A stretch of 64,000 nt of DNA, taken from the sequence record OZ035771.1; one strand, written 5' to 3'. Shown piece by piece: positions 2,687 to 61,876 of the stretch (within the stretch, counting starts at the first letter, position 1; every line of letters starts with the position of its first letter). The DNA is from Phapecoctavirus DIJ07P2. Position numbers and translations under genes: made by a program. The notes beneath the pieces were generated by a model, which did not search any database, had not been told where the DNA came from, and worked only from the letters and a program-made list of their open reading frames with translations.

Positions 2687-4711
2687 ATGAATTTAACAAG
2701 ACCTAATAGTGCGATAGCCGATCTGGTAGAAGCTACTTATCGAAAACGTCGCAGCTTTGAGGCAGGTTTTACATTACGTAATTCCCGTGAAGTTTTGCTG
2801 TTAGCAGCAGAAGGGAATTATTACCAATGGAAAGGAACTTTTCCTAAAGTAGTTCCAGCAAACTCTACGCCAGCCACCACAGGTGGTATTTCTTCCCTTG
2901 CATGGCAAAGTGTTGGGACCGCTGATGATATAGCAATTATCAATGCCAAGTTTACGGCAATGCAGCAACAGATTGATGATCTGTCGGAAACAATACCTGA
3001 AGCTGGTAAATCGGCTTATCAGATCGCACTTGATAATGGTTTTGTTGGAACAGAAGCACAATGGCTTGCTTCTTTGAAAGGGGATACTGGTGCTCAACTT
3101 AATATTAAAGGATCATTAGCAAGCACTAGTGAACTACCATCTACAGGTAACGTAGCAGGTGATGGTTATATTGTAGGAGATGTAATCTACGCGTGGGATG
3201 GGGCTGTTTGGAAACTTATTTCTTCTCTTGGACCAGAAGGGAAATCAGCTTACGAGGTATGGTTGGCAGAGGGTAATACAGGATCTGTTTATGACTTTCT
3301 TGCCTCTATAAAAGGTGATAAAGGAGACGTTGGTCCTACAGGTCCACAGGGTGCACCTGGTGTCAACGCTAATGGTTTTGATTACCGTGGAGATTTGCCT
3401 TCTACAAGTAACTTACCACAACCTAACTCTGAAAACGTAAGCCAAGCTTATTCTATTAATGGTAATCTTTATGTCTCTAATGGGACAGCTTGGGTCAACA
3501 TGGGTAATATTGTTGGTCCTCAAGGTCCACAAGGTGAGGCAGGTAAAGACGGTCTAGATGGAACAGATGGAGACGAAGGGAAATCTGCATATCGAAGTTG
3601 GCTGGACGCTGGTAATGAAGGGACAGAAGTAGATTTTATTGCCTCGCTTAAAGGTCCAAAAGGAGACAAGGGAGAGCAAGGAGAACGAGGACCACAAGGC
3701 GAATTAGGTCCACAAGGACCAGTGGGTGCAACAGGATCAGGTTTAGAGATTATCGGGGTTCTGAACAGCGAAGCTGAACTTCCTCCGACTGGAGAAGTAG
3801 GTGATGCATATAAAATTAATAATGATTTGTATGTTTGGGTTCAAGATGCTACAGAATGGATGAATGTTGGCAGTCTTGGAGGAACATCAATTACAGCCAA
3901 AGGTCATGTTCCGAACAGCGAGGCTCTCCCTGTTTATAATAACTATGGTGATGCCTACTTAACTGAAGACACTAGTAATCTTTACATCTATACCTACGAT
4001 CAAGACACCAATTCCGCATCTTTTGTTGACATGGGAAGTATTAAAGGTGACAAAGGTGAAAAAGGGGATAAAGGAGATAAGGGTGATCCTGGAACAAACG
4101 GAACCAACGGTACTGATGGGACCAACGGTAAGGACGGCGCACAGTGGTTTGTAGCAACAACTAATCCAGTCGCAGGAGATGGTGTTATCAATGATTACGC
4201 CTTCAATACTACCACTGGGGCAGTGTTTAAGAAAACGGACTCTTCTACGTGGACACTTATAGGAACTCTTCCTAGTATACCAGAAGCTCCTCAAGACGGG
4301 TTGACTTATGGTCGCTCTGATGGAGACTGGATAGAAATATCGGGGTCAGATCCTACGGAAGCTATAACACCAACTAGAGTTACAGCAGGTTTCATGGAAC
4401 TTGAAACAACTACTGCCAACTCTGGAGCATCTTGGACTCCTTCTGGAACTTCCAATATGTATGTTGTTACAGTAACTGACGCTTTGACAGTTGGAGCATG
4501 GCCTGGTGTTACGAGTTCTACAAAACCTAAAGCATTTTCAGCAATGATTTATTTGATTCAAGATACAACGGGACACACGGTTACACTAGATGCGTCTTAT
4601 GGAGCACTGAATGATACAGAAATAGCAACTACTGCTAACGCAGTAACAATTTTGCAATTAACGTATCCTGGTGTGGGTGATATCGTGGACATGGTTGTTG
4701 TAACACGATAG
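2687..4711 (+). CDS. tail fibre protein with collagen-like Gly-X-Y tracts and internal repeats
   Basis: ATG 2687 with SD taggagag; Gly-X-Y runs (KGDKGDVGPTGPQGAPG; KGPKGDKGEQGERGPQGELGPQGPVGATG; KGDKGEKGDKGDKGDPGTNGTNGTDGTNGKDG); 3-4 repeats of GKSAY..W...G..G...F.AS.KG. Confidence 0.6.
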   Translation: MNLTRPNSAIADLVEATYRKRRSFEAGFTLRNSREVLLLAAEGNYYQWKGTFPKVVPANSTPATTGGISSLAWQSVGTADDIAIINAKFTAMQQQIDDLSETIPEAGKSAYQIALDNGFVGTEAQWLASLKGDTGAQLNIKGSLASTSELPSTGNVAGDGYIVGDVIYAWDGAVWKLISSLGPEGKSAYEVWLAEGNTGSVYDFLASIKGDKGDVGPTGPQGAPGVNANGFDYRGDLPSTSNLPQPNSENVSQAYSINGNLYVSNGTAWVNMGNIVGPQGPQGEAGKDGLDGTDGDEGKSAYRSWLDAGNEGTEVDFIASLKGPKGDKGEQGERGPQGELGPQGPVGATGSGLEIIGVLNSEAELPPTGEVGDAYKINNDLYVWVQDATEWMNVGSLGGTSITAKGHVPNSEALPVYNNYGDAYLTEDTSNLYIYTYDQDTNSASFVDMGSIKGDKGEKGDKGDKGDPGTNGTNGTDGTNGKDGAQWFVATTNPVAGDGVINDYAFNTTTGAVFKKTDSSTWTLIGTLPSIPEAPQDGLTYGRSDGDWIEISGSDPTEAITPTRVTAGFMELETTTANSGASWTPSGTSNMYVVTVTDALTVGAWPGVTSSTKPKAFSAMIYLIQDTTGHTVTLDASYGALNDTEIATTANAVTILQLTYPGVGDIVDMVVVTR

Positions 4712-8876: not shown

Positions 8877-9470
8877 TTACCAAGGAATATCATCTTCTTC
8901 CAATCGGGTATCTACTTGAGGTGGACGTGGAACCTTAACCTCTTTCACAAAACGAAGATACGGGAAACGTGTAGCAATTTTAATAACGTGTTTGGCATCT
9001 TCTCTAACATCTTTGTGCAAGAAGCAGATCCCTGTTTCCAAAGTTGTTTCAAAATCTTTAGAGTAATAACAATCCTTTCCATCAAATGCAGCCTGGCAGA
9101 TGGACAGATCAAACTCATTTAGAAAGGTTGTCATTACGCTTGGTTCCATAATCATAAGGTTGCAAAGCTGACCATCACGTTCAAACTCAAAAACGTGTTT
9201 AAGACCAGTAACACCTTCATAATTGTCAGAAGCCTCTTTGTTTCCTAGTTTACGAATATTGGTTCCCATTAAAGCAGATGCAATTAATCCTTGTATTTGT
9301 TCTTCAGTCCGATGTGCAGGAAGGGACGTATAGAAATCCAGATCACGTCCAGCAATATCAAGAATACGCCAATCACGAACAGCACCGCCAGCCAAGACAG
9401 AATTAGGATCAGCGATCTTTAATACGGTAAGAATTTCTTTGGCAATATTGATTTGTTTTGATTTAGTCAT
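8877..9470 (-). CDS. Pol-beta-superfamily nucleotidyltransferase (CCA-adding/poly(A) polymerase head-like)
   Basis: motif LAGGAVRD-x9-GRDLDF (GGxVRD...DxD); C-terminus ...RLEEDDIPW resembles an SSB-type tail. Confidence 0.45.
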   Translation of the reverse strand: MTKSKQINIAKEILTVLKIADPNSVLAGGAVRDWRILDIAGRDLDFYTSLPAHRTEEQIQGLIASALMGTNIRKLGNKEASDNYEGVTGLKHVFEFERDGQLCNLMIMEPSVMTTFLNEFDLSICQAAFDGKDCYYSKDFETTLETGICFLHKDVREDAKHVIKIATRFPYLRFVKEVKVPRPPQVDTRLEEDDIPW

Positions 9471-9681
9471 TGATACGCTCCACAGTTACTTTTACAACAT
9501 CGTCCATATTAATCTCATCCCCCAAGACCTCAATAACACCTTCCTCATAAAGTCTAGCACATTCTTCCCACACTTCAGCTTCCGTCATTCCACCTGCAAT
9601 CTTATTTGCAAGACCTTTAATAACATCTTCATTTTGTTCATCAACAAGAATTGAAACATTAAAGCTCACTAATTTACGCAT
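9463..9681 (-). CDS. hypothetical protein (72 aa)
   Basis: track ORF; ATG 9681 with SD aaggag. Confidence 0.4.
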   Translation of the reverse strand: MRKLVSFNVSILVDEQNEDVIKGLANKIAGGMTEAEVWEECARLYEEGVIEVLGDEINMDDVVKVTVERIND

Positions 9682-9691
9682 TGTTTTCTCC

Positions 9692-9859
9692 TTATACTTC
9701 TAAACGGAAAGTTTCTTTAGATACAAAATCGTATCCACCTTTTTCAAGCCAATCATTGTAAACCTCATCGGCTTGAGACTCTATCATAAAATACCGAGTG
9801 GTAACTTCGTCTCCGACAATACGCACAATTTTATAGCAAATCATGATACCATTTCCCAT
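9692..9859 (-). CDS. small hypothetical protein (55 aa)
   Basis: ATG 9859 overlapping upstream stop (TAATG), SD ggagga; stop at 9692-9694; below track length cut-off. Confidence 0.3.
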   Translation of the reverse strand: MGNGIMICYKIVRIVGDEVTTRYFMIESQADEVYNDWLEKGGYDFVSKETFRLEV

Positions 9860-10050
9860 TAATCTTCCTCCAGATCAATTTCATTATAACAATGTATACA
9901 GAAACCATCATTGTGCATATGTTGTTCATAAGACATATCTTTACCACAAGACCAACAACGGATATCCCCATCGTCCCATTCACGTTCTTCTTCGCCTTCA
10001 AATTCATCTGGTAGGTAAGGCATACCAAAATAATCTAAATCGTAACTCAT
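9859..10050 (-). CDS. small zinc-ribbon protein (63 aa)
   Basis: internal ATG 10050 with SD aggagaag preferred over track start 10155 (which would overlap the polymerase 3' end); CWSCG...CIHC. Confidence 0.4.
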   Translation of the reverse strand: MSYDLDYFGMPYLPDEFEGEEEREWDDGDIRCWSCGKDMSYEQHMHNDGFCIHCYNEIDLEED

Positions 10051-10059
10051 ATCTTCTCC

Positions 10060-10080
10060 TATAAAGGGGCAGAAGCCCCT
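10060..10080 (-). terminator. terminator/attenuator-like hairpin after DNA polymerase gene
   Basis: ggggcagaagcccc hairpin between polymerase stop (10100) and next start; followed on minus strand by TTTATAGG. Confidence 0.3.
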
Positions 10081-10099
10081 TATAAAACAATACGTTAGA

Positions 10100-12697
10100 T
10101 CAATGACAGGATGCCCAGGAATTACCCACATCATATCCGGCAGTAAGCTGAACATTAAGATTGTAAAATTCTCCAGCCTTAGTAACAGCTAAGGCAGCAA
10201 GTTCACCTGCCCGACTATAGGCTGTAAACCATCCACCTTTGGGAGATTCATGAATGTTAGCCCAAATTTGCCCTGTCTCTTTTTCCTTATTATGCTTCCA
10301 TTCTTCGACTTTAGCAAGGCATTCTTTATCAATCTTCTTTTGTTCTTCAGGATCGTCTACTTTCTTCCAACCTAATGATTCAGGTGAAAACCATTTAAAT
10401 TCTACAAGGTTACGAGAAACTTCAAGCTGGGCTTCATCGTGATATGCAATCATTTGTTGCACGAAATCTTTATTCTTCCAGTCATCTTTAAAGAAGTCAA
10501 CACTTAGTCCTTCTTCTTCGATCATGTCGTCATAAATAACCATTGCACGTTTAGCACAGATAACCCCACCACTTTGGAACAGAGAGTTAAGAATCGCGTG
10601 AGCAGAACGAGTAGGAACCTTACGACCGTCAATACCCAAAACATATTGTTTACCAGTCTTAACCCAAAAATCGTTTAAACGTTCTTTAAGACGCGCCAAT
10701 GGGAATGCAGCTTCCCAGAAAGCATCAAACACCAATTGACCTGTAAACTTATCGCTACCAATTGTTTTAGCAACCTTGTCGGCTTGTGCACCATAGGTAA
10801 TACCATACTTAACAGATTTAGCAGGACTACGTTCAAATTTACGTCCAATAGTTTCAGTGATACGTTTTGCCATCATTGTGTGAACATCGTTAGGTTTCTC
10901 TAACAACAGAGCGTTACAATATTCGTGTGGCTCCGGCTCGTACCGCCAACAGTAGTGTGATTCAATTTTTGCTTCCAAAGAGTCGAAGTCGTAGCCGATC
11001 TGGAAGTATTTAGGAACCTCTACACCAAACAAGTTACGCATCTCCCATCCAAACAAAGATGTGACACGAGGGATATTGGCTACAGACCTATGCTTCATAC
11101 GAGAGGTTGCAGCATCACATGTAGCGGCTGGGGTAGGAATACGCCCATCTGCCCTTACTGCGGCTAAGAAACCTTTATCGTATTCTTGATCTTCTTCATC
11201 TTCTTCCCAATCAGCACCGCCACCTAAAATAGAGTTCCTACGATGCTTATACGTTAAGTATTCTACAATCTGAGTAGCATAAGGAAATTTCTCACCCAAA
11301 GCTTGCAGGTTAGGACAAATTTCTTTTTCCTGACCTTTGGTAAAACATGGGTTAGTCAATACTTTAAGACCGCGACCTTTACCTTTTGCTATACGCTCTT
11401 GAATCTTCCTTTCCAAGGTTTCCGGTGTGCACTCCAGATGATCACAACGATCCTGACAAAAATTAGAAGATAGAGTTTGCTCAACGTAAGCTCGAATACC
11501 TTTCTGAAGTTCTTCCTCGCTCTTTTTAATCTTGGTGCCAGATTTAAGAGTCAAGTCTTTATCTTTATATTCAGACGGTACCCAACCTAATCCTACAAGC
11601 CAGTTTTTAATATGGGTTGTATCGTTCAATGTTGCAGGGATATTAGGATCACACAAAGGCTCATCTGCTGCAACTGGCAGTTTCCACTCTTTACCCAACA
11701 TAACTAACCACCAATCGCCATCCCTCTCTTCCAAATGACCATCATGTTTCTTAGCAAAATTGATCATATGGTTAGTTGGCTCTAAGTTCTTTTTAATTTG
11801 CAACTTAGGTGGAATAAAAGCCTTAAGATAACCTTTTGTTGCTGGTTTAGGTGGCAAAATAGGCTCAACGAGTAAACGAAGACGCTCCATTTCTGCATCC
11901 AAAAAAGCAAGGTTCTCTTCTGCTTGCTTCATGTTAAAAGCAAACCCACGGTGTTCCTGGCGTGTAATAATGTCTGCTACACGTTGTTCAAGTTCAAATG
12001 GACCTTCCCATTTATCATAATCACCCCATTCTTCCATGAGGTAATTATATACACTTGTGTTGGCTTTGTTATCATAGATACAGTAATAAAGCATATCCGC
12101 AGCAAAAGTCTTAAATCGATCTTCTTCTGGAATCTCTTTACGGAAATCTATTTTTACATCACCCCCTGCCTTTCGAGAAAGTGCTGCCAAGCTATGTCCT
12201 GATTTGCCCTCAATCTTTCGATCTGGGTTTAACACTTTACTCAAAATCAAGGAGTCAATAAGTTTTACCTTATTTTTGCCCCACGTATTATATTTAACAC
12301 TGTAATCTAAGCCATAAAACAGTTTTGTAGCCAACCAGTCATAGTTGATACCGTTGTGAGCCACAGCCATTTCAACCAGATATTCAGGCTTATCTTTAAA
12401 ATAACCTTCATGATTAATAAAGTCTGGGAAATCTTTTAGTTGAAAATGTGTGTAATCTTGCGCCACATACTCTTTAAGAACATATGTGTATTTACCATCT
12501 GACTCTTCATAAGGACGCCCATCAAAGATGTATTTAGGGCCATCGTGGAAAGCTACTATTTCTCCTGTTTCATGGTTCTCTAAGACAATACAGTGCATTT
12601 GAAATGTGTCTTTGAGACGATAAGGACTAGCTAAATAATCGATAGTATCATTATTCAACAATCCATTTGCTTCAATATCCCATGTAAACTTACTCAC
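10100..12697 (-). CDS. DNA polymerase, family A, with 3'-5' exonuclease domain
   Basis: 865 aa; Exo I-like FTWDIEANGL; motif B-like RSPAKSVKYGITYGAQ; motif C-like IAYHDEAQLEV; GTG start 12697 with SD aaaggagg. Confidence 0.85.
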   Translation of the reverse strand: MSKFTWDIEANGLLNNDTIDYLASPYRLKDTFQMHCIVLENHETGEIVAFHDGPKYIFDGRPYEESDGKYTYVLKEYVAQDYTHFQLKDFPDFINHEGYFKDKPEYLVEMAVAHNGINYDWLATKLFYGLDYSVKYNTWGKNKVKLIDSLILSKVLNPDRKIEGKSGHSLAALSRKAGGDVKIDFRKEIPEEDRFKTFAADMLYYCIYDNKANTSVYNYLMEEWGDYDKWEGPFELEQRVADIITRQEHRGFAFNMKQAEENLAFLDAEMERLRLLVEPILPPKPATKGYLKAFIPPKLQIKKNLEPTNHMINFAKKHDGHLEERDGDWWLVMLGKEWKLPVAADEPLCDPNIPATLNDTTHIKNWLVGLGWVPSEYKDKDLTLKSGTKIKKSEEELQKGIRAYVEQTLSSNFCQDRCDHLECTPETLERKIQERIAKGKGRGLKVLTNPCFTKGQEKEICPNLQALGEKFPYATQIVEYLTYKHRRNSILGGGADWEEDEEDQEYDKGFLAAVRADGRIPTPAATCDAATSRMKHRSVANIPRVTSLFGWEMRNLFGVEVPKYFQIGYDFDSLEAKIESHYCWRYEPEPHEYCNALLLEKPNDVHTMMAKRITETIGRKFERSPAKSVKYGITYGAQADKVAKTIGSDKFTGQLVFDAFWEAAFPLARLKERLNDFWVKTGKQYVLGIDGRKVPTRSAHAILNSLFQSGGVICAKRAMVIYDDMIEEEGLSVDFFKDDWKNKDFVQQMIAYHDEAQLEVSRNLVEFKWFSPESLGWKKVDDPEEQKKIDKECLAKVEEWKHNKEKETGQIWANIHESPKGGWFTAYSRAGELAALAVTKAGEFYNLNVQLTAGYDVGNSWASCH

Positions 12698-17045: not shown

Positions 17046-18032
17046 CTACAAACTTTCAATAACCTGGCGTCGCAATTCGTTTGCATCTGCCAGATTATAA
17101 TGTGTTCGAACATGTTCCGCTAAGAACAAGCCGCGATCTTCCCGATAGTTCGGATTTCGAAGAAGCTTAACAATTTCGTAATGCCATTCTGCTTTATTCT
17201 CTGCATAAGCAACAGCGCGAGCATCTACAGGGTTAAAATAAGGTAATACCTTAGAACAAACAATCGGAATACCTTTTGCCCCAGCTTCAAGGATTTTGAG
17301 ATTACTTTTACAATTATTAAAATCATTATCTACCAAAGGAGCTATAGCAATAGCATGACTTTCGTAAACACTCATGTAATTATCTAAATCTTTTACAGCA
17401 GCTTTATATTTGGCATTTGGTAAATTTCTACGGATTTTAATCCACTCTTGCCCTGTGATACTCTGCGAAGCTTCATACCCCGCAATAGTAAGAAGTTCAT
17501 CATCAAAAGTGTTAGAGACTAGTCGTAAATCGGGTTCGTGACTAGCACCTCCAGCCCATACAATAGGGGTACCGGATGAACGATCATTTGACAAAGTGAA
17601 TTGTCCACTATCAAAAGGAAGTGCATTTCGGATCACAACAACATTCCTATTTAAGTGACGGATCTTATATGCCAAGTATTCCGTAGTCACAATAACCACA
17701 TCAGCAAGCTTAACCATAGCCACAATAGCATGAGTGTTTGACTCGTATAAACTTGCCAAATAATGCTCTGGATTAAGTTGGTAGAAATCATCTAAATCTA
17801 CAACAATCTTAACACCTTGACGTTTCAGGGACAGAACATATTCTGCCCCTTTAGAATGAATACGGTTAAACACGACAACATCTTTCTTAGGCTGAAAATT
17901 ATTGTTGTTAAATGGTACAACAATACGATGATAATCACAACCACTGTGAGGTTTTGCATCAATTTTCAGTTTAGTCCATTTTTTATTTGACATGTGCCAG
18001 TGCCTCCTCATAAGAAATTCGGATTTTCCCAT
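17046..18032 (-). CDS. glycosyltransferase, GT-B fold (GT4-like), paralogue 2
   Basis: C-terminal motif NLKILEAGAKGIPIVCS; similar length and shared blocks with 16094..17038. Confidence 0.45.
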   Translation of the reverse strand: MGKSEFLMRRHWHMSNKKWTKLKIDAKPHSGCDYHRIVVPFNNNNFQPKKDVVVFNRIHSKGAEYVLSLKRQGVKIVVDLDDFYQLNPEHYLASLYESNTHAIVAMVKLADVVIVTTEYLAYKIRHLNRNVVVIRNALPFDSGQFTLSNDRSSGTPIVWAGGASHEPDLRLVSNTFDDELLTIAGYEASQSITGQEWIKIRRNLPNAKYKAAVKDLDNYMSVYESHAIAIAPLVDNDFNNCKSNLKILEAGAKGIPIVCSKVLPYFNPVDARAVAYAENKAEWHYEIVKLLRNPNYREDRGLFLAEHVRTHYNLADANELRRQVIESL

Positions 18033-49628: not shown

Positions 49629-50167
49629 GAATAACTGATGAATATGTATTCTTCTTTTCACATAAAGATGTGTTTAGTAATTGGTATATTGCACCCTTTA
49701 CAGAAACTGAACCAGGTTACAATGAGACTTTCTGTTGTGTTGAGCAATATATGATGTGGCGTAAGGCTTTGCTGTTCAAGGATCATGCGATTGCAGCAGC
49801 TATCCTTGATCACTCAACTATACGTGACAACGAGAGGAAACAAGCATACTACAAACGTATGGGTCGAGCGGTATCTGGTTTTAATAATGATATGTGGGAA
49901 GAGAACCGTGAGCGTATTGTTATGCGAGGTTTATGCTTGAAATATGTACAGAATCCAGATTTGTATGCAGACTTACACCTTTACCAATACAAAACGTTTG
50001 TTGAAGCAAGTCCTTACGATAAGGTTTACGGTATTGGAATGGGAATGTATGAACCAGGGGTGCTAAATCCGGTCAACTGGAAAGGGCAAAATCTTTTAGG
50101 TAAATATCATAACAAACTGATCGAAATACTTTTCCCAGACAAAATACCGCAAAGACGATATTTGTGA
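49625..50167 (+). CDS. NADAR (YbiA-like) domain protein
   Basis: FSNWYIAPF ... VEQYMMWRKALLF ... YKRMGRAV ... WEENRERIVMRGLCLKYVQNPDL ... EASPYDKVYGIGMG matches YbiA/NADAR pattern. Confidence 0.65.
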   Translation: MRITDEYVFFFSHKDVFSNWYIAPFTETEPGYNETFCCVEQYMMWRKALLFKDHAIAAAILDHSTIRDNERKQAYYKRMGRAVSGFNNDMWEENRERIVMRGLCLKYVQNPDLYADLHLYQYKTFVEASPYDKVYGIGMGMYEPGVLNPVNWKGQNLLGKYHNKLIEILFPDKIPQRRYL

Positions 50168-50222
50168 TATTTTAACTTTTTTCATTTTTAGAACAAAGGT
50201 GTCACTTTGTAGCACAGAAATA

Positions 50223-50260
50223 AGGCTCCTACAGCACCGTAGAGAGCCTATTATTTTGTC
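50223..50260 (+). terminator. rho-independent terminator after rightward early block
   Basis: aggctcctacagcaccgtagagagcct interrupted hairpin followed by attattttgtc. Confidence 0.5.
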
Positions 50261-50390
50261 CTATACAAACCCTTGTCTTTTTCAGTTTGCATCACTAGGA
50301 TTCGATCTGAGTGGGTTCCTGAAGGTCTGCCAATAAGATTAAAGGTTATCTCAAATTCCCACTACCTATTATCTCAAAAATCCCTCAAAT

Positions 50391-50596
50391 TATTTAAACT
50401 TTTTAAGAATTTACAAAAGTGAAAGTTGAAAACCAAAATTTAAAGTTTAGGAAAATTATCTTAAAATGTCAGATACAAAACAAAACTCAAAAGTCAAGGA
50501 AAATTTTAAAAATTTTGCGCGCCCACAGTATTTAAAGTTTTTTTGCTTTTACAAAAATGAAAGTACAAAAGCAAAATTTAAAGTTTACAAAAATTT
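50391..50596. repeat. AT-rich direct repeats (two ~65-bp copies plus a degenerate middle copy)
   Basis: tatttaaaCtttttaagaatttacaaaaGtgaaagt...caaaatttaaagttta versus tatttaaaGtttttttgcttttacaaaaAtgaaagt...caaaatttaaagttta. Confidence 0.6.
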
Positions 50597-50607
50597 ATGC
50601 AGATGGG

Positions 50608-50721
50608 AATGAGAAGAGTTCTCATATGGAAATGCAAATGATAATGATTCGCATTTAGGTTTATAAATGAGATTGATTCTTATTTGATAAGGTAAATGAT
50701 AATCATTCTCATTTAGAGAAT
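50608..50721. promoter_or_regulatory. cluster of palindromic TTCTCAT/ATGAGAA-type boxes resembling Fur boxes
   Basis: atgagaaGAGttctcat (perfect IR); aaatgataatgattcgcattt; aaatgataatcattctcatttagagaatg (cattctc-N5-gagaatg). Confidence 0.45.
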
Positions 50722-50972
50722 GACGCGCAGGGGCGGTGTTTGTCTCGCGCTCCCGTGTCCCCTCGCCATGTAATAAGAATAACAGATCCAGCCAGGAAAG
50801 CAAGCGATTATTTTATCTTTACATTTCTTTACAAATATATAGCGCCCAGCCTACCGGCGATCAACCTTCCAACCAGCGCCCTGGTATGTTAGCCCCGCCT
50901 TTACGCCGTGGGGGTGGCGCTTCCTCTTCTGTATGTAAAACAGTATAAGCCCGATCCCTGGGCTTGTCAAGA

Positions 50973-51239
50973 TTATTTTTTGTTTTCTTGCCAGGTTAGG
51001 ACACCTAGCCAAAAATGAATATCACCTTTTCCCCAATGTGGTATATTGCTTTCTTTCCCACCTTCACGCGCCCAGGTAAAACCGCCCGTGTAACTTTGTA
51101 ATTGATAACTATCCTCGACCTTATAATCTGATAGGTTGAGAACTGTTTCAACCTTTAAGCCCGTTGCGCTTGCTACCTGGTGCACCGTGCCGCCTTGCCA
51201 GCCCAATGAGTGCATAAGGTGTAATGTAGTATTTGTCAT
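50973..51239 (-). CDS. hypothetical protein (88 aa), isolated leftward gene
   Basis: track ORF; only weak SD; sits inside otherwise non-coding GC-rich island, so uncertain. Confidence 0.3.
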   Translation of the reverse strand: MTNTTLHLMHSLGWQGGTVHQVASATGLKVETVLNLSDYKVEDSYQLQSYTGGFTWAREGGKESNIPHWGKGDIHFWLGVLTWQENKK

Positions 51240-51348
51240 GGTGTCGCCCTTTCTTTGTTGTGCGCCCTGGTTGGCGCGGTAGAAAGATGATAGCCCTTTC
51301 CTTTATATATAGCAAGCAAAAAGAAAATAAAAAAGATTGAAAAAGTGA

Positions 51349-51406
51349 TTGACGTTCGCCAGGTGGCGGCATAATATTTACCACGTAGGGCGGCAATGGT
51401 GCCGCT
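51349..51406 (+). promoter_or_regulatory. early promoter + 5' stem-loop cassette, unit 1
   Basis: TTGACG, N16, ATAATA; ccacgtaggg then stem-loop ggcggcaATGGtgccgct; ATG 51427. Confidence 0.55.
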
Positions 51407-51426
51407 CATTATTTGGAATTAAGATC

Positions 51427-51624
51427 ATGGCAACATTGCACATTGTGGCGAAAGCTGGACAAATCAACGTAGTAGTAAACGGTTTTACTGAGTTCAGTCA
51501 TCCCCAGGATGATCATGAAACGGTTTTATCTTTCATTGATTCACTGTTAGAAATGGGAGTCATTACAGAAGACCAGCACGCTACAAAATGCAAACGCGTT
51601 AATCAGATTGCAGGAATAGAATAA
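51427..51624 (+). CDS. small early protein (65 aa)
   Basis: first ATG downstream of cassette 1; track start 51349 lies in promoter. Confidence 0.5.
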   Translation: MATLHIVAKAGQINVVVNGFTEFSHPQDDHETVLSFIDSLLEMGVITEDQHATKCKRVNQIAGIE

Positions 51625-59980: not shown

Positions 59981-60059
59981 CCCGAACAATGTTGATAGCT
60001 TTCGCCTATGAAAAACCGACACAGAACAAAACTGAATAAATCGCGGTATCGAGCTAATC

Positions 60060-60480
60060 AACCAGCAAACGAATAACCATACCTCCCAGGGTTACAGGCT
60101 GTTAGAGAGCCATTTAGAGCGGTTAAAATCGATCAACAACCAACAACAAACCATCAAAAACACCCTTTTACCTCCTTTCTAGTGCAATGATAACCATTAT
60201 CATCTACCCATGATTATCTATGCAATATAAGCGCATAATTATAATGTTGATAATAGTTCGCAACAACTAACCAACAAACAACATAAAACAATAAGCAAAC
60301 TAATCATAATCAAAGGAATAATAGCAAGATGATTGATAACGACAAACAATCGAACCATGATGAATACTAAGCAAGATAACGATAACACGACAAAACAACC
60401 AACTAACGAACAATAACAAACGAAACCATTAAAATAATAACTATTAGCAAAATAGTGCCTGAATGAAATCATTACAAAAC
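60060..60480. repeat. strand-biased A+C-rich (plus strand) non-coding tract with short caacaa/gataacga-type repeats
   Basis: plus strand nearly devoid of G and T runs, e.g. caaccaacaacaaaccatcaaaaacaccc and gataacgacaaacaatcgaacc / gataacgataacacgacaaaacaacc. Confidence 0.5.
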
Positions 60481-60507
60481 GAATCATTCACAGAGTCATC
60501 ATTAGCA

Positions 60508-60660
60508 CGCTATGCCGGACACATAGCGAGCTAATAATAAGCCAACTACACCCCAACAATCATAACCATCGGTGACGGTTATTTCTTGTTACTGCGTAGC
60601 TTGCAATAATTGCAAGCGTAATGACGCTTACACTTATTGCGCTGGCTTATTATTAGCATT
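60508..60660. repeat. nested inverted repeats (potential cruciform / large stem-loop)
   Basis: cgctatg-N7-catagcg (60508-60528); 14-bp arms gctaataataagcc (60530-60543) and ggcttattattagc (60644-60657) flanking perfect 19-bp palindrome gcttgcaataattgcaagc (60599-60617). Confidence 0.55.
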
Positions 60661-60964
60661 ATATGTAATTACCAAGATCATAACATTAGCGCAATAACAA
60701 TAGTCATTGTAATAATTACATGAGTTATCACTATCGTTCAGTGTGATCATCATTAGCACAGTGAATAATTGCACGTAGCAACATGAGCGAATAGCGACAG
60801 GTTGCATAGTGTGCACATAGTGTATAAACATACAAGAAAATAAAGGCTAATCTTTTGGGGGCGAATACTATCGCGTAGCGATATGTTGAGCACCTTCTCT
60901 TAAACGTAAATAAAATCAGAAAATTCTTGATTTATTTTAGTTTTTATGTTAATAAACGTTTAAA

Positions 60965-60983
60965 TAATAATCATTCTCATATA
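60965..60983. promoter_or_regulatory. TTCTCAT-type Fur-box-like site
   Basis: ataataatcattctcatat. Confidence 0.4.
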
Positions 60984-61140
60984 AATAATAGTCTGCTTGT
61001 CATGAGCGGGATTAGTTGACAATGTTCCGTCATATGATGAAGTTGCCAAGCCATTGATAAATAAGTGTTTGTGTGATTTATAATCAGGTGGCCCACCTTG
61101 TCGCTATGTTGGCATGAGCCTTGCATAAGTCATTGAATAC

Positions 61141-61166
61141 GAATGATAATTATTCTCATTCGCATG
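61141..61166. promoter_or_regulatory. TTCTCAT-type Fur-box-like palindromic site
   Basis: gaatgataattattctcattcgcatg (gaatga-N9-tcattc). Confidence 0.4.
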
Positions 61167-61501
61167 ATATTTGGGAATTGTCGCTGCGTGGACCTGACGG
61201 CCCGAAAATTCGCGTTAAGCACTTCTTACGTATACGCCATGATTTTTGCCATATGATATTGATTCTATTAGATATTCTTGCCATTATTGCCATGAAACAT
61301 GGTGTCCCGAAATAATCTCTCCCCGTAGATATTTTGGGTTACTTTTTATACAAGAGTGGGGTGTCAAAAATAATCAGTATATATGGGATAATTGATAGGA
61401 ATCCCCTATGATAATTCGATTGTAATTCCCTAAGATTGATCGTATGATGTTGGTGATTGATGATTGCCATGAAAGATGGCTAACGATGAGAGGAGATTGT
61501 C

Positions 61502-61876
61502 ATGCAAGAGAGTAAAAATGTTCCGTTGAGTAGTGCAACATTGCTTCGCTTCTATAAAGCATGGATTGCCAACTATCCTGCAATGAATCGCACAACGAGT
61601 GGCTTATGTGGTTGTCTGGTAGATTATGTAAATGATTTTGTTGGTGAGACAACTAGAGAAGAAGATAGAAGATGGCGGGATAGTTTGTTGGACCGTTTGA
61701 AATATGAAATGAGGAAACAATTTACATGTGCAGGGCTGGACTATAATCTTCCGTTCAATGCAGATTGCATGGATTACCTTTCAGAGTGTATAAACTTGGC
61801 GTGTCATACCAACACGTTACGTCTTCAGTGGGTGAAAGACAGAATTGAAGATGCAAATAATGCTTGCATTGAATAA
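61502..61876 (+). CDS. hypothetical protein (124 aa), Cys-rich
   Basis: track ORF; SD gagaggag. Confidence 0.5.
   Translation: MQESKNVPLSSATLLRFYKAWIANYPAMNRTTSGLCGCLVDYVNDFVGETTREEDRRWRDSLLDRLKYEMRKQFTCAGLDYNLPFNADCMDYLSECINLACHTNTLRLQWVKDRIEDANNACIE

Follow-up and report, generated by a model that had tools for sequence, protein, structure and literature searches.

Palindromic TTCTCAT/ATGAGAA boxes lie on both sides of an array of small early genes in Phapecoctavirus DIJ07P2, and the question they raise is which protein may bind them. The window, that is, the whole stretch of 64,000 nucleotides (nt) analyzed here (record OZ035771.1), comes from a Phapecoctavirus (phAPEC8-like) Escherichia coli myophage; such genomes measure about 150 kb. 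A preliminary description had likened the boxes to operators of Fur (ferric uptake regulator, the bacterial iron sensor), and had proposed either that some transcription is coupled to host iron status through Fur, or that a phage-encoded dimeric regulator binds there. The early array consists of roughly 20 small plus-strand genes (about 51.35-59.94 kb), and ahead of nearly every one stands a separate sigma-70 promoter close to consensus (mostly TTGACA-17-TAnnnT). The left cluster of boxes is found inside an 800-bp gap without credible gene, and the other boxes in a non-coding gap of about 1.56 kb (59.94-61.50 kb) that adjoins the array on the right.

Fur-like boxes in two non-coding gaps

The boxes have in common a 17-bp pattern, ATGAKAA-N3-TTCKCAT. 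When up to two mismatches were allowed, the pattern ATGAKAANNNTTCKCAT gave 20 strand-matches in the window, compared to 3.2 +/- 1.9 expected, and this number was reached in none of 100 dinucleotide shuffles. All matches with at most one mismatch fell within the two non-coding gaps. In the left gap, four boxes follow one another with a period of exactly 29 bp.

Likeness to Fur sites was scored with a symmetric 19-column matrix, derived from the best sites of 13 E. coli K-12 intergenic regions with well-known Fur-repressed promoters (fepA-fes, fepD-entS, fepB-entC, fhuA, fur, tonB, cirA, exbB, ryhB, fecA, fecI, fiu and fhuE). The matrix reproduces the textbook consensus, and only 2 matches of at least 12 bits were obtained in 55,962 non-training E. 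coli positions. Under leave-one-out scoring, the 13 K-12 sites ranged from 6.4 to 20.7 bits, with 11 to 16 of 19 positions identical to the consensus. Five of the phage boxes reached 15 to 19 bits, with 14 to 16 of 19 positions identical to the consensus GATAATGATAATCATTATC, which places them inside the range of genuine sites and bears out the resemblance noticed earlier. Individual 19-mers scored 19.3 (50692), 18.4 (61145), 18.0 (60183), 17.0 (61139), 15.4 (50634) and 15.1 (60960). The window contained seven 19-mers of at least 16 bits, compared to 0.42 expected, and the two gaps held seven of the nine best matrix matches of the 64 kb; when each gap was shuffled locally at its own composition, the observed counts were reached in 0 of 500 shuffles. 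The Fur consensus given in the preliminary description was correct: positions 50692-50710, in box L4 (Table 1), match it at 16 of 19 positions, and any such match was seen in only 4 of 100 shuffles. The same box agrees in 19 of 25 positions with F-F-x-R-R, the arrangement of hexamers that gives high affinity.

A search beyond the region retrieved no further box within one mismatch of the pattern, either in the rest of the window or in positions 1-90 kb of phage Schickermooser, where no match of at least 16 bits was found apart from the terminal-repeat copy. All box strings quoted in the preliminary description were present, including the perfect inverted repeat ATGAGAAGAGTTCTCAT. Its list was right for L1, L2, L4, R3 and R4; L3, R1 and R2 had been missed, and two motifs within 61387-61422, gataattgatagg and atgataattcg, were rejected as boxes (10.1 and <6 bits), as they belong to a separate 24-bp tandem repeat. 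This repeat (61387-61436, unit GATAATTSGATWGKAATYCCCTAW, 2.1 copies) lies just upstream of the gene at 61502, the first gene past the terminal repeat.

Long exact runs are common to the boxes and known operators. The ryhB operator has 18 exact bases in common with box R3 (AATAATAATCATTCTCAT), and ATTCTCATTCGCA in common with box R4. Fifteen exact bases are common to box L4 and the entC-fepB Fur region, and 13 to the fecI site and the boxes. Fur was shown to shift the ryhB and fhuA sites by Chen et al. 2007 (PMC2189734). Furthermore, each palindrome is made of two Fur 19-mers, with centers 3 bp either side of the box center and 6 bp apart, and overlapping matrix matches exactly 6 bp apart were found at 50628/34/40, 50686/92/98 and 61139/45. 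Such 6-bp spacing is the signature of real Fur clusters and two-dimer sites (PMC2189734). As the palindrome corresponds to two offset 19-mers (F-F-x-R-R), two or more Fur dimers per box would be expected. The boxes also grow by hexamer units: phiWec179 has GAATGAGAATGAGAATGATTCTCATTC, and in locus L018 the GAGAAT unit is present four times. In consensus, hexamer composition, 6-bp overlap and score range, they are like the E. coli Fur operators of ryhB, fhuA, entC-fepB and fecI. The consensuses of ArgR, Zur, MntR, NikR, CRP, LexA and PurR probably fit less well than that of Fur.

Around the boxes, a 1-kb stretch has 99.2% identity with Escherichia phages SKA64 and iGC_PHA_EC001, and 94 to 98% with many Phapecoctavirus genomes. 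Selection on the boxes becomes visible among more diverged phages. Five were aligned (the window, Schickermooser, phiWec179, the Justusliebigvirus VEcB and a Klebsiella relative), and pairwise identity was 82% in the box arms, 58% in the central N3 and 48% in the spacers. Box spacing (23-40 bp) and number drift, and the consensus is retained. The Schickermooser counterpart of box L3 scores 16.6 bits. Boxes were found at the same module in Phapecoctavirus, Justusliebigvirus, the Klebsiella relative, Vequintavirus, Seunavirus and two Certrevirus phages.

We also fetched 120 viral contigs with one exact 17-mer. Most of them had single matches, probably by chance or unrelated, and only multi-box loci were informative; the set is biased, having been selected on the box itself. 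At least three separate Fur-matrix clusters within 400 bp were present in 24 of the 120 contigs. Ten multi-box contigs were inspected: their G+C content ranged from 21 to 49%, one was related to the window phage, and in nine the array lay in a gap of 336 to 1177 bp free of open reading frames (ORFs). That viruses so diverse have a motif in common speaks for a conserved host protein, and the spread of the motif favors host Fur over a phage regulator as the probable ligand. In keeping with this, the Fur models of E. coli, Pseudomonas aeruginosa and Bacillus subtilis closely resemble one another (PMC2189734).

By sequence, the boxes are equivalent to proven Fur sites; they are present far above chance, are selected, and are confined to two non-coding regions.

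Among the contig loci, IMG/VR loci L004, L047, L076, L079, L046, L090, L051 and L038, from uncultivated viruses unrelated to this phage (21-49% G+C), have arrays of four to eight Fur-like boxes that are almost identical to one another. The arrays occupy gaps of 0.3-1.2 kb without ORFs, and several are near a contig end; in L047, CGCAA or TGCAA follows each box.

Table 1. Coordinates of the boxes and of the features around them in the window
Feature	Position	Strand	Sequence	Remarks
Box L1	50609-50625		ATGAGAAGAGTTCTCAT	Perfect 7-3-7 palindrome; 12.0 / 3.8 bits, least Fur-like left box
Box L2	50638-50654		ATGATAATGATTCGCAT	Two overlapping Fur-type 19-mers, 6 bp offset, 15.4 + 12.6 bits
Box L3	50667-50683		ATGAGATTGATTCTTAT	Degenerate, 8.6 / 10.3 bits; holds the 29-bp phase
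Box L4	50696-50712		ATGATAATCATTCTCAT, then ttagagaatg	Best box, 19.3 bits
GAGAAT hexamer	50716-50721	plus	GAGAAT	A few bases past box L4
Box R1	60187-60203		ATGATAACCATTATCAT	18.0 bits; about 700 bp left of the terminal repeat
Box R2	60247-60263		TTGATAATAGTTCGCAA	Weak, 7.4 / 5.4 bits
Extra Fur-matrix match	60645-60663		GCTTATTATTAGCATTATA	16.5 bits; outside the 17-bp box pattern
Box R3	60964-60980		ATAATAATCATTCTCAT	15.1 bits; within the terminal repeat
Box R4	61143-61159		ATGATAATTATTCTCAT	Two 19-mers 6 bp offset, 17.0 + 18.4 bits; within the terminal repeat
Direct terminal repeat	60889-61217			329 bp; identical to both ends of the Schickermooser record; holds R3 and R4
G+C-rich non-coding element	50722-50935	minus		About 215 nt, conserved; always abuts the last box
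Sigma-70-type promoter	50942-50970	minus	TTGACA-17-TATACT	11/12; reads leftward to the element and boxes
A+T-rich direct repeats	50386-50595	plus		Two 72-nt units, 82% alike, directly left of the array
NADAR-domain gene	ends 50167	plus		Left of the left gap
88-amino-acid gene	50973-51239	minus		Right of the left gap

Predicted Fur binding and the nature of the ligand

The left array belongs to a module that recurs in seven aligned phages, among them the Seunavirus PVP-SE1 and the Certrevirus phages phiTE and PBES 02. It is composed of a minus-strand promoter, the 215-nt element, (G/C)AGAAT, and then one to five boxes. In the Vequintavirus Murica, which stands outside this alignment, the box and the G+C-rich stretch are present in two copies. 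The module promoter, TTGACA-17-TATACT in the window, is somewhat degenerate in some relatives. The element, for which the promoter at 50970-50942 probably drives leftward transcription, displays long invariant blocks, 1-nt indels and some compensatory pairs, and its alignment folds at -85.5 kcal/mol on the minus strand, compared to -72.3 kcal/mol on the plus strand. Single-sequence fold z-scores (-0.85 and -0.05) were not significant, and the element matched no Rfam family; nothing credible was obtained from Rfam for the whole window at the gathering threshold, or for 50100-51500 at an E-value threshold. The element could represent a novel non-coding RNA of the phage. The hexamer at 50716-50721 could be either an extra Fur hexamer or a weak -10; it is kept as (G/C)AGAAT in the seven genera (CGGAAT in phiTE), and is GAGAAT in the T5-like phiR2-01. 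Inspection by eye indicates that the last box forms the spacer of a weak opposite-facing TTGAAT-18-CAGAAT in PVP-SE1, PBES 02 and Murica, and of TTGAAT-18-CGGAAT in phiTE; the window version has a poor -35.

We favor, with restrained confidence, the explanation that the boxes are multi-dimer sites for host iron-loaded Fur and that Fur binding is the property under selection. Each box would take at least two Fur dimers, and on the 29-bp-phased array the dimers would form a stack. The boxes occupy two places: the 329-bp terminal repeat with the DNA just inside it, and the edge of the terminal early block (roughly 10 kb) on its inner side. In an iron-replete host, array-bound Fur would halt or repress transcription through the non-coding unit and across the terminal repeat, and under iron starvation the block would be lifted. 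We infer both Fur binding itself and a roadblock or operator role from these patterns. Occupancy-dependent blocking on phage DNA seems the most likely role, a view we hold loosely; it is preferred because the invariant neighbor of the boxes is a promoter-driven non-coding unit, with in addition a weak opposite promoter in relatives. If Fur does bind, these phages read or exploit the iron state of the host directly on their own DNA. As such arrays recur in viral contigs without relation to this phage, phage genomes may contain a widespread type of host-factor site that has been overlooked.

Fur boxes are well known in bacterial promoters and at a few prophage cargo genes. The stx1 gene is one such Fur-controlled gene of temperate phages. 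On lambdoid coliphages, a host Fur box ties the phage-borne sitABCD locus to the host iron regulon (PMC6969025). The arrays described here are like these in placing a host Fur box on phage DNA, and unlike them in form: sitABCD and stx1 have a single operator at the promoter of a cargo gene, whereas the virulent phages considered here carry arrays in their non-coding DNA, without an iron cargo gene next to them. Conserved multi-box arrays of this kind, which virulent phages have in their terminal repeats and non-coding DNA, appear to be new: the literature searched contained no report of Fur boxes in T5 or virulent phages, and nothing relevant on transcriptomes of this phage group.

Several observations weigh against Fur as the ligand. 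The boxes do flank the early array, being present on both sides of 51.35-59.94 kb, but the roughly 20 promoters of the array itself are all without a box, and we conclude that the boxes are not operators of these promoters. The iron-linked control of neighboring early genes considered in the preliminary description is thus not supported. The E. coli operators overlap the -35 or -10 of the promoter that they repress, whereas the phage boxes lie in long promoter-poor gaps and overlap no convincing promoter; only weak promoter-like matches coincide with them, and the closest strong promoter, the leftward one at 50970-50942, is about 220-330 bp upstream of the array. The 29-bp phasing and the terminal-repeat placement are foreign to known Fur operators. 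Boxes L1 (the perfect palindrome), L3 and R2 are weakly Fur-like, and the hexamers GAGAAT/ATTCTC/ATTCGC are favored in the phage over GATAAT/ATTATC, which could mark another protein of overlapping specificity. The consensus served as the seed of the matrix, and the training set consisted of best matches that we selected ourselves, not of footprints. Finally, matches as strong as the boxes are found in apparent coding sequence, at 17312-17330 (19.6 bits) and 3368-3386 (16.2 bits), and a high score alone is therefore no proof of function. These two matches are probably due to chance; they are isolated and without the 17-bp palindrome. It should be kept in mind that the whole case is based on sequence.

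Could another protein be the ligand? We consider it unlikely that the boxes are operators of a phage-encoded dimeric protein or of another host protein, with a Fur likeness that would be coincidental or reflect a partial overlap in specificity. Such a protein would account for the clean 7-3-7 palindrome, the most perfect copy of which (50609) is the least Fur-like, as well as for the systematic GAGAAT/ATTCGC arm preference and the regular 29-bp phasing. An 88-amino-acid gene moreover lies beside the module in most related phages examined. Its product gives a confident all-helical model (pLDDT, a model confidence score, of 95) and has 21 homologues without annotation; it was rejected as a regulator candidate, with no significant structural match and no annotated homologue. 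No DNA-binding or replication Pfam domain was found in the neighboring ORFs, which fall into PHROG families of unknown function, and a search with E. coli Fur found no homologue in the phage. The distribution of the boxes argues against another protein: the same ones are present in Demerecviridae, in the unrelated Stephanstirmvirinae and Vequintavirinae, and in viral contigs of 21-49% GC without DNA similarity to this phage. No homologue of a T5 terminal-repeat protein was detected by tblastn in this phage. Expansion by hexamer units and double sites offset by 6 bp are, furthermore, hallmarks of Fur. The second proposal of the preliminary description, a phage-encoded dimeric regulator, is disfavored by the boxes in unrelated phages, by this hexamer growth, and by the failure to recognize a DNA-binding neighbor.

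Genome ends and the T5 injection-stop region

In the Schickermooser record, the first 329 bp are identical to the last 329 bp and to positions 60889-61217 of the window; the authors of that record give a 328-bp terminal repeat (PMC6563267). Three other records end at about 61216-61217. From the identity of the repeats and the records that end there, it follows that the physical genome ends lie inside the right gap. The window spans the junction of a circularized or concatemer-style assembly. Boxes R3 and R4 are located 75 and 254 bp from the left edge of the terminal repeat, and R1 and R2 about 700 bp inward of it. The early array corresponds to the last 10 kb of the linear genome, and the four-box array is 10.5-10.6 kb from the right end (61217), or about 7% of the genome. 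Two boxes likewise fall inside the 342-bp terminal repeat published for the Justusliebigvirus BME3 (PMC12210895), and in VEcB the distance from the array to the end gap is about 10.6 kb, with the same layout. About 0.8 kb of the start of the BME3 record (PP239276) is repeated near its end, and the record contains N's; as 'DTR-L' is annotated in this partly duplicated assembly, its terminal-repeat coordinates need caution.

A Blast analysis (blastn) matched window positions 50597-50721 to T5-like phages at the box array itself. The T5 boxes start at 9553, 9657 and 9692 (span 9553-9708), score 16 to 19 bits, and fall within the annotated 'injection stop signal' (9140-10149). In phiR2-01, seven boxes are found inside the terminal repeat, the first three of them 30 and 29 bp apart. 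The first-step-transfer DNA of T5 is its leftmost 7.9%. Davison described many direct repeats and palindromes in the T5 region (DRC, palE-palJ) to which no function was given, and proposed DnaA boxes as the stop signal; Fur is nowhere mentioned.

The likeness to T5 Repeat Region 3 extends to the box sequence, the similar spacing, the blastn link, a position about 10 kb from a genome end and the vicinity of small early genes; it holds at the level of the region. There are also clear differences. In T5 the boxes are inside a 10-kb terminal repeat, whereas here the repeat is 329 bp long and the four-box array is outside it. T5 also has paired DnaA boxes in inverted repeats and achieves transfer via A1 and A2. 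In this phage, DnaA boxes (TTWTNCACA) were absent from both gaps and numbered 7 in the whole window, compared to 7.7 expected, and none of 18 T5 left-end proteins (A1, A2 and dmp included) had a tblastn match at E <= 0.01 in the window or in Schickermooser 1-90 kb. Since the gaps have no DnaA boxes and no T5 left-end homologue was detected, the common feature is specifically the Fur-like box.

This parallel suggests a rather speculative idea, to which we give little credit: Fur-box arrays would be a common cis-element of large virulent phages of enterobacteria (T5-like, rV5-like and phAPEC8-like) that bounds a terminal, first-expressed block, Fur, or an iron signal acting through it, would contribute to pausing or gating DNA entry or the switch from early to later expression, and the array would be part of the T5 injection stop signal. 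The fact that the annotated T5 injection-stop-signal region carries the same boxes bears on the T5 stop-signal question.

A related explanation, which is compatible with Fur binding and which we hold to be slightly less probable still, is that the boxes have an architectural role, in which they would either stop or pause the entering DNA or mark the genome end. A bound protein, Fur or another, would set the limit of a terminal block of about 10 kb, the first to enter or to be expressed. The physical end at 61217, the promoter-rich array of small genes in the last 10 kb, and the position of the boxes at about 7% of the genome, compared to 7.9% for the first step of T5, are all in keeping with this, as are the T5 boxes inside the annotated stop signal, the similar phiR2-01, the blastn link between arrays, the lack of an assigned function for the T5 palindromes, and the same layout in VEcB and BME3. 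However, the terminal repeat is 329 bp and not 10 kb long, with the left array outside it; the gaps have no DnaA boxes, and A1/A2 homologues are missing. The early genes are transcribed toward the end and not away from it, a two-step transfer is unreported for these phages, and a cytoplasmic protein could hardly stop DNA that is still extracellular.

It is very unlikely that the boxes act as a Fur decoy. Roughly ten multi-dimer sites per genome would titrate Fur, derepress iron uptake and iron-sparing functions, and feed the iron-dependent class Ia ribonucleotide reductase of the phage. Multicopy Fur boxes do derepress the Fur regulon, and the Fur titration assay is based on this effect. In strength, the sites equal chromosomal operators, each genome has eight boxes plus two in the second repeat copy, and the phage encodes NrdA, NrdB and glutaredoxin. 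A decoy, however, has no need of conserved positions, phasing, or adjacency to a non-coding element, and in T5, where host DNA is reportedly degraded within minutes, derepression of host genes would be pointless. As for a replication origin (iteron-like and transcription-primed) or a packaging signal recognized by the terminase, it is hardly credible: the four 29-bp-phased repeats, the adjacent A+T-rich 72-nt repeats, the strong promoter reading toward them and the two boxes inside the terminal repeat would fit, but there are no DnaA boxes in the gaps and no initiator gene nearby, T5 origins are near the genome center and outside the repeat region, a single motif would need to function at the ends as well as at an origin located 10 kb inside, and iterons and pac sites are normally lineage-specific, whereas this motif is common to unrelated viruses.

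Other features of the flanking regions

The very A+T-rich region at 50386-50595 contains, besides its two 72-nt units, further copies of the motif TATTTAAAGTTTTT; VEcB and the Klebsiella phage have related repeats in the corresponding place. No tRNAs were found in the window. Within the early array, the intergenic regions between 51340 and 59520 have a recurrent organization, in which most promoters are followed by a G+C-rich 5' hairpin (for example cacgtagggcggcaatggtgccgctca) and then by a ribosome-binding site; this promoter-hairpin cassette is present in about 15-18 copies. On the far side of the array, the stretch at 60000-60900 is without gene annotation in every relative. Its plus strand is strikingly rich in A and poor in G (AT skew +0.21, GC skew -0.15). 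Runs of CAACAA/AACAAC are frequent in it, and it contains several short palindromes (for example gcttgcaataattgcaagc).

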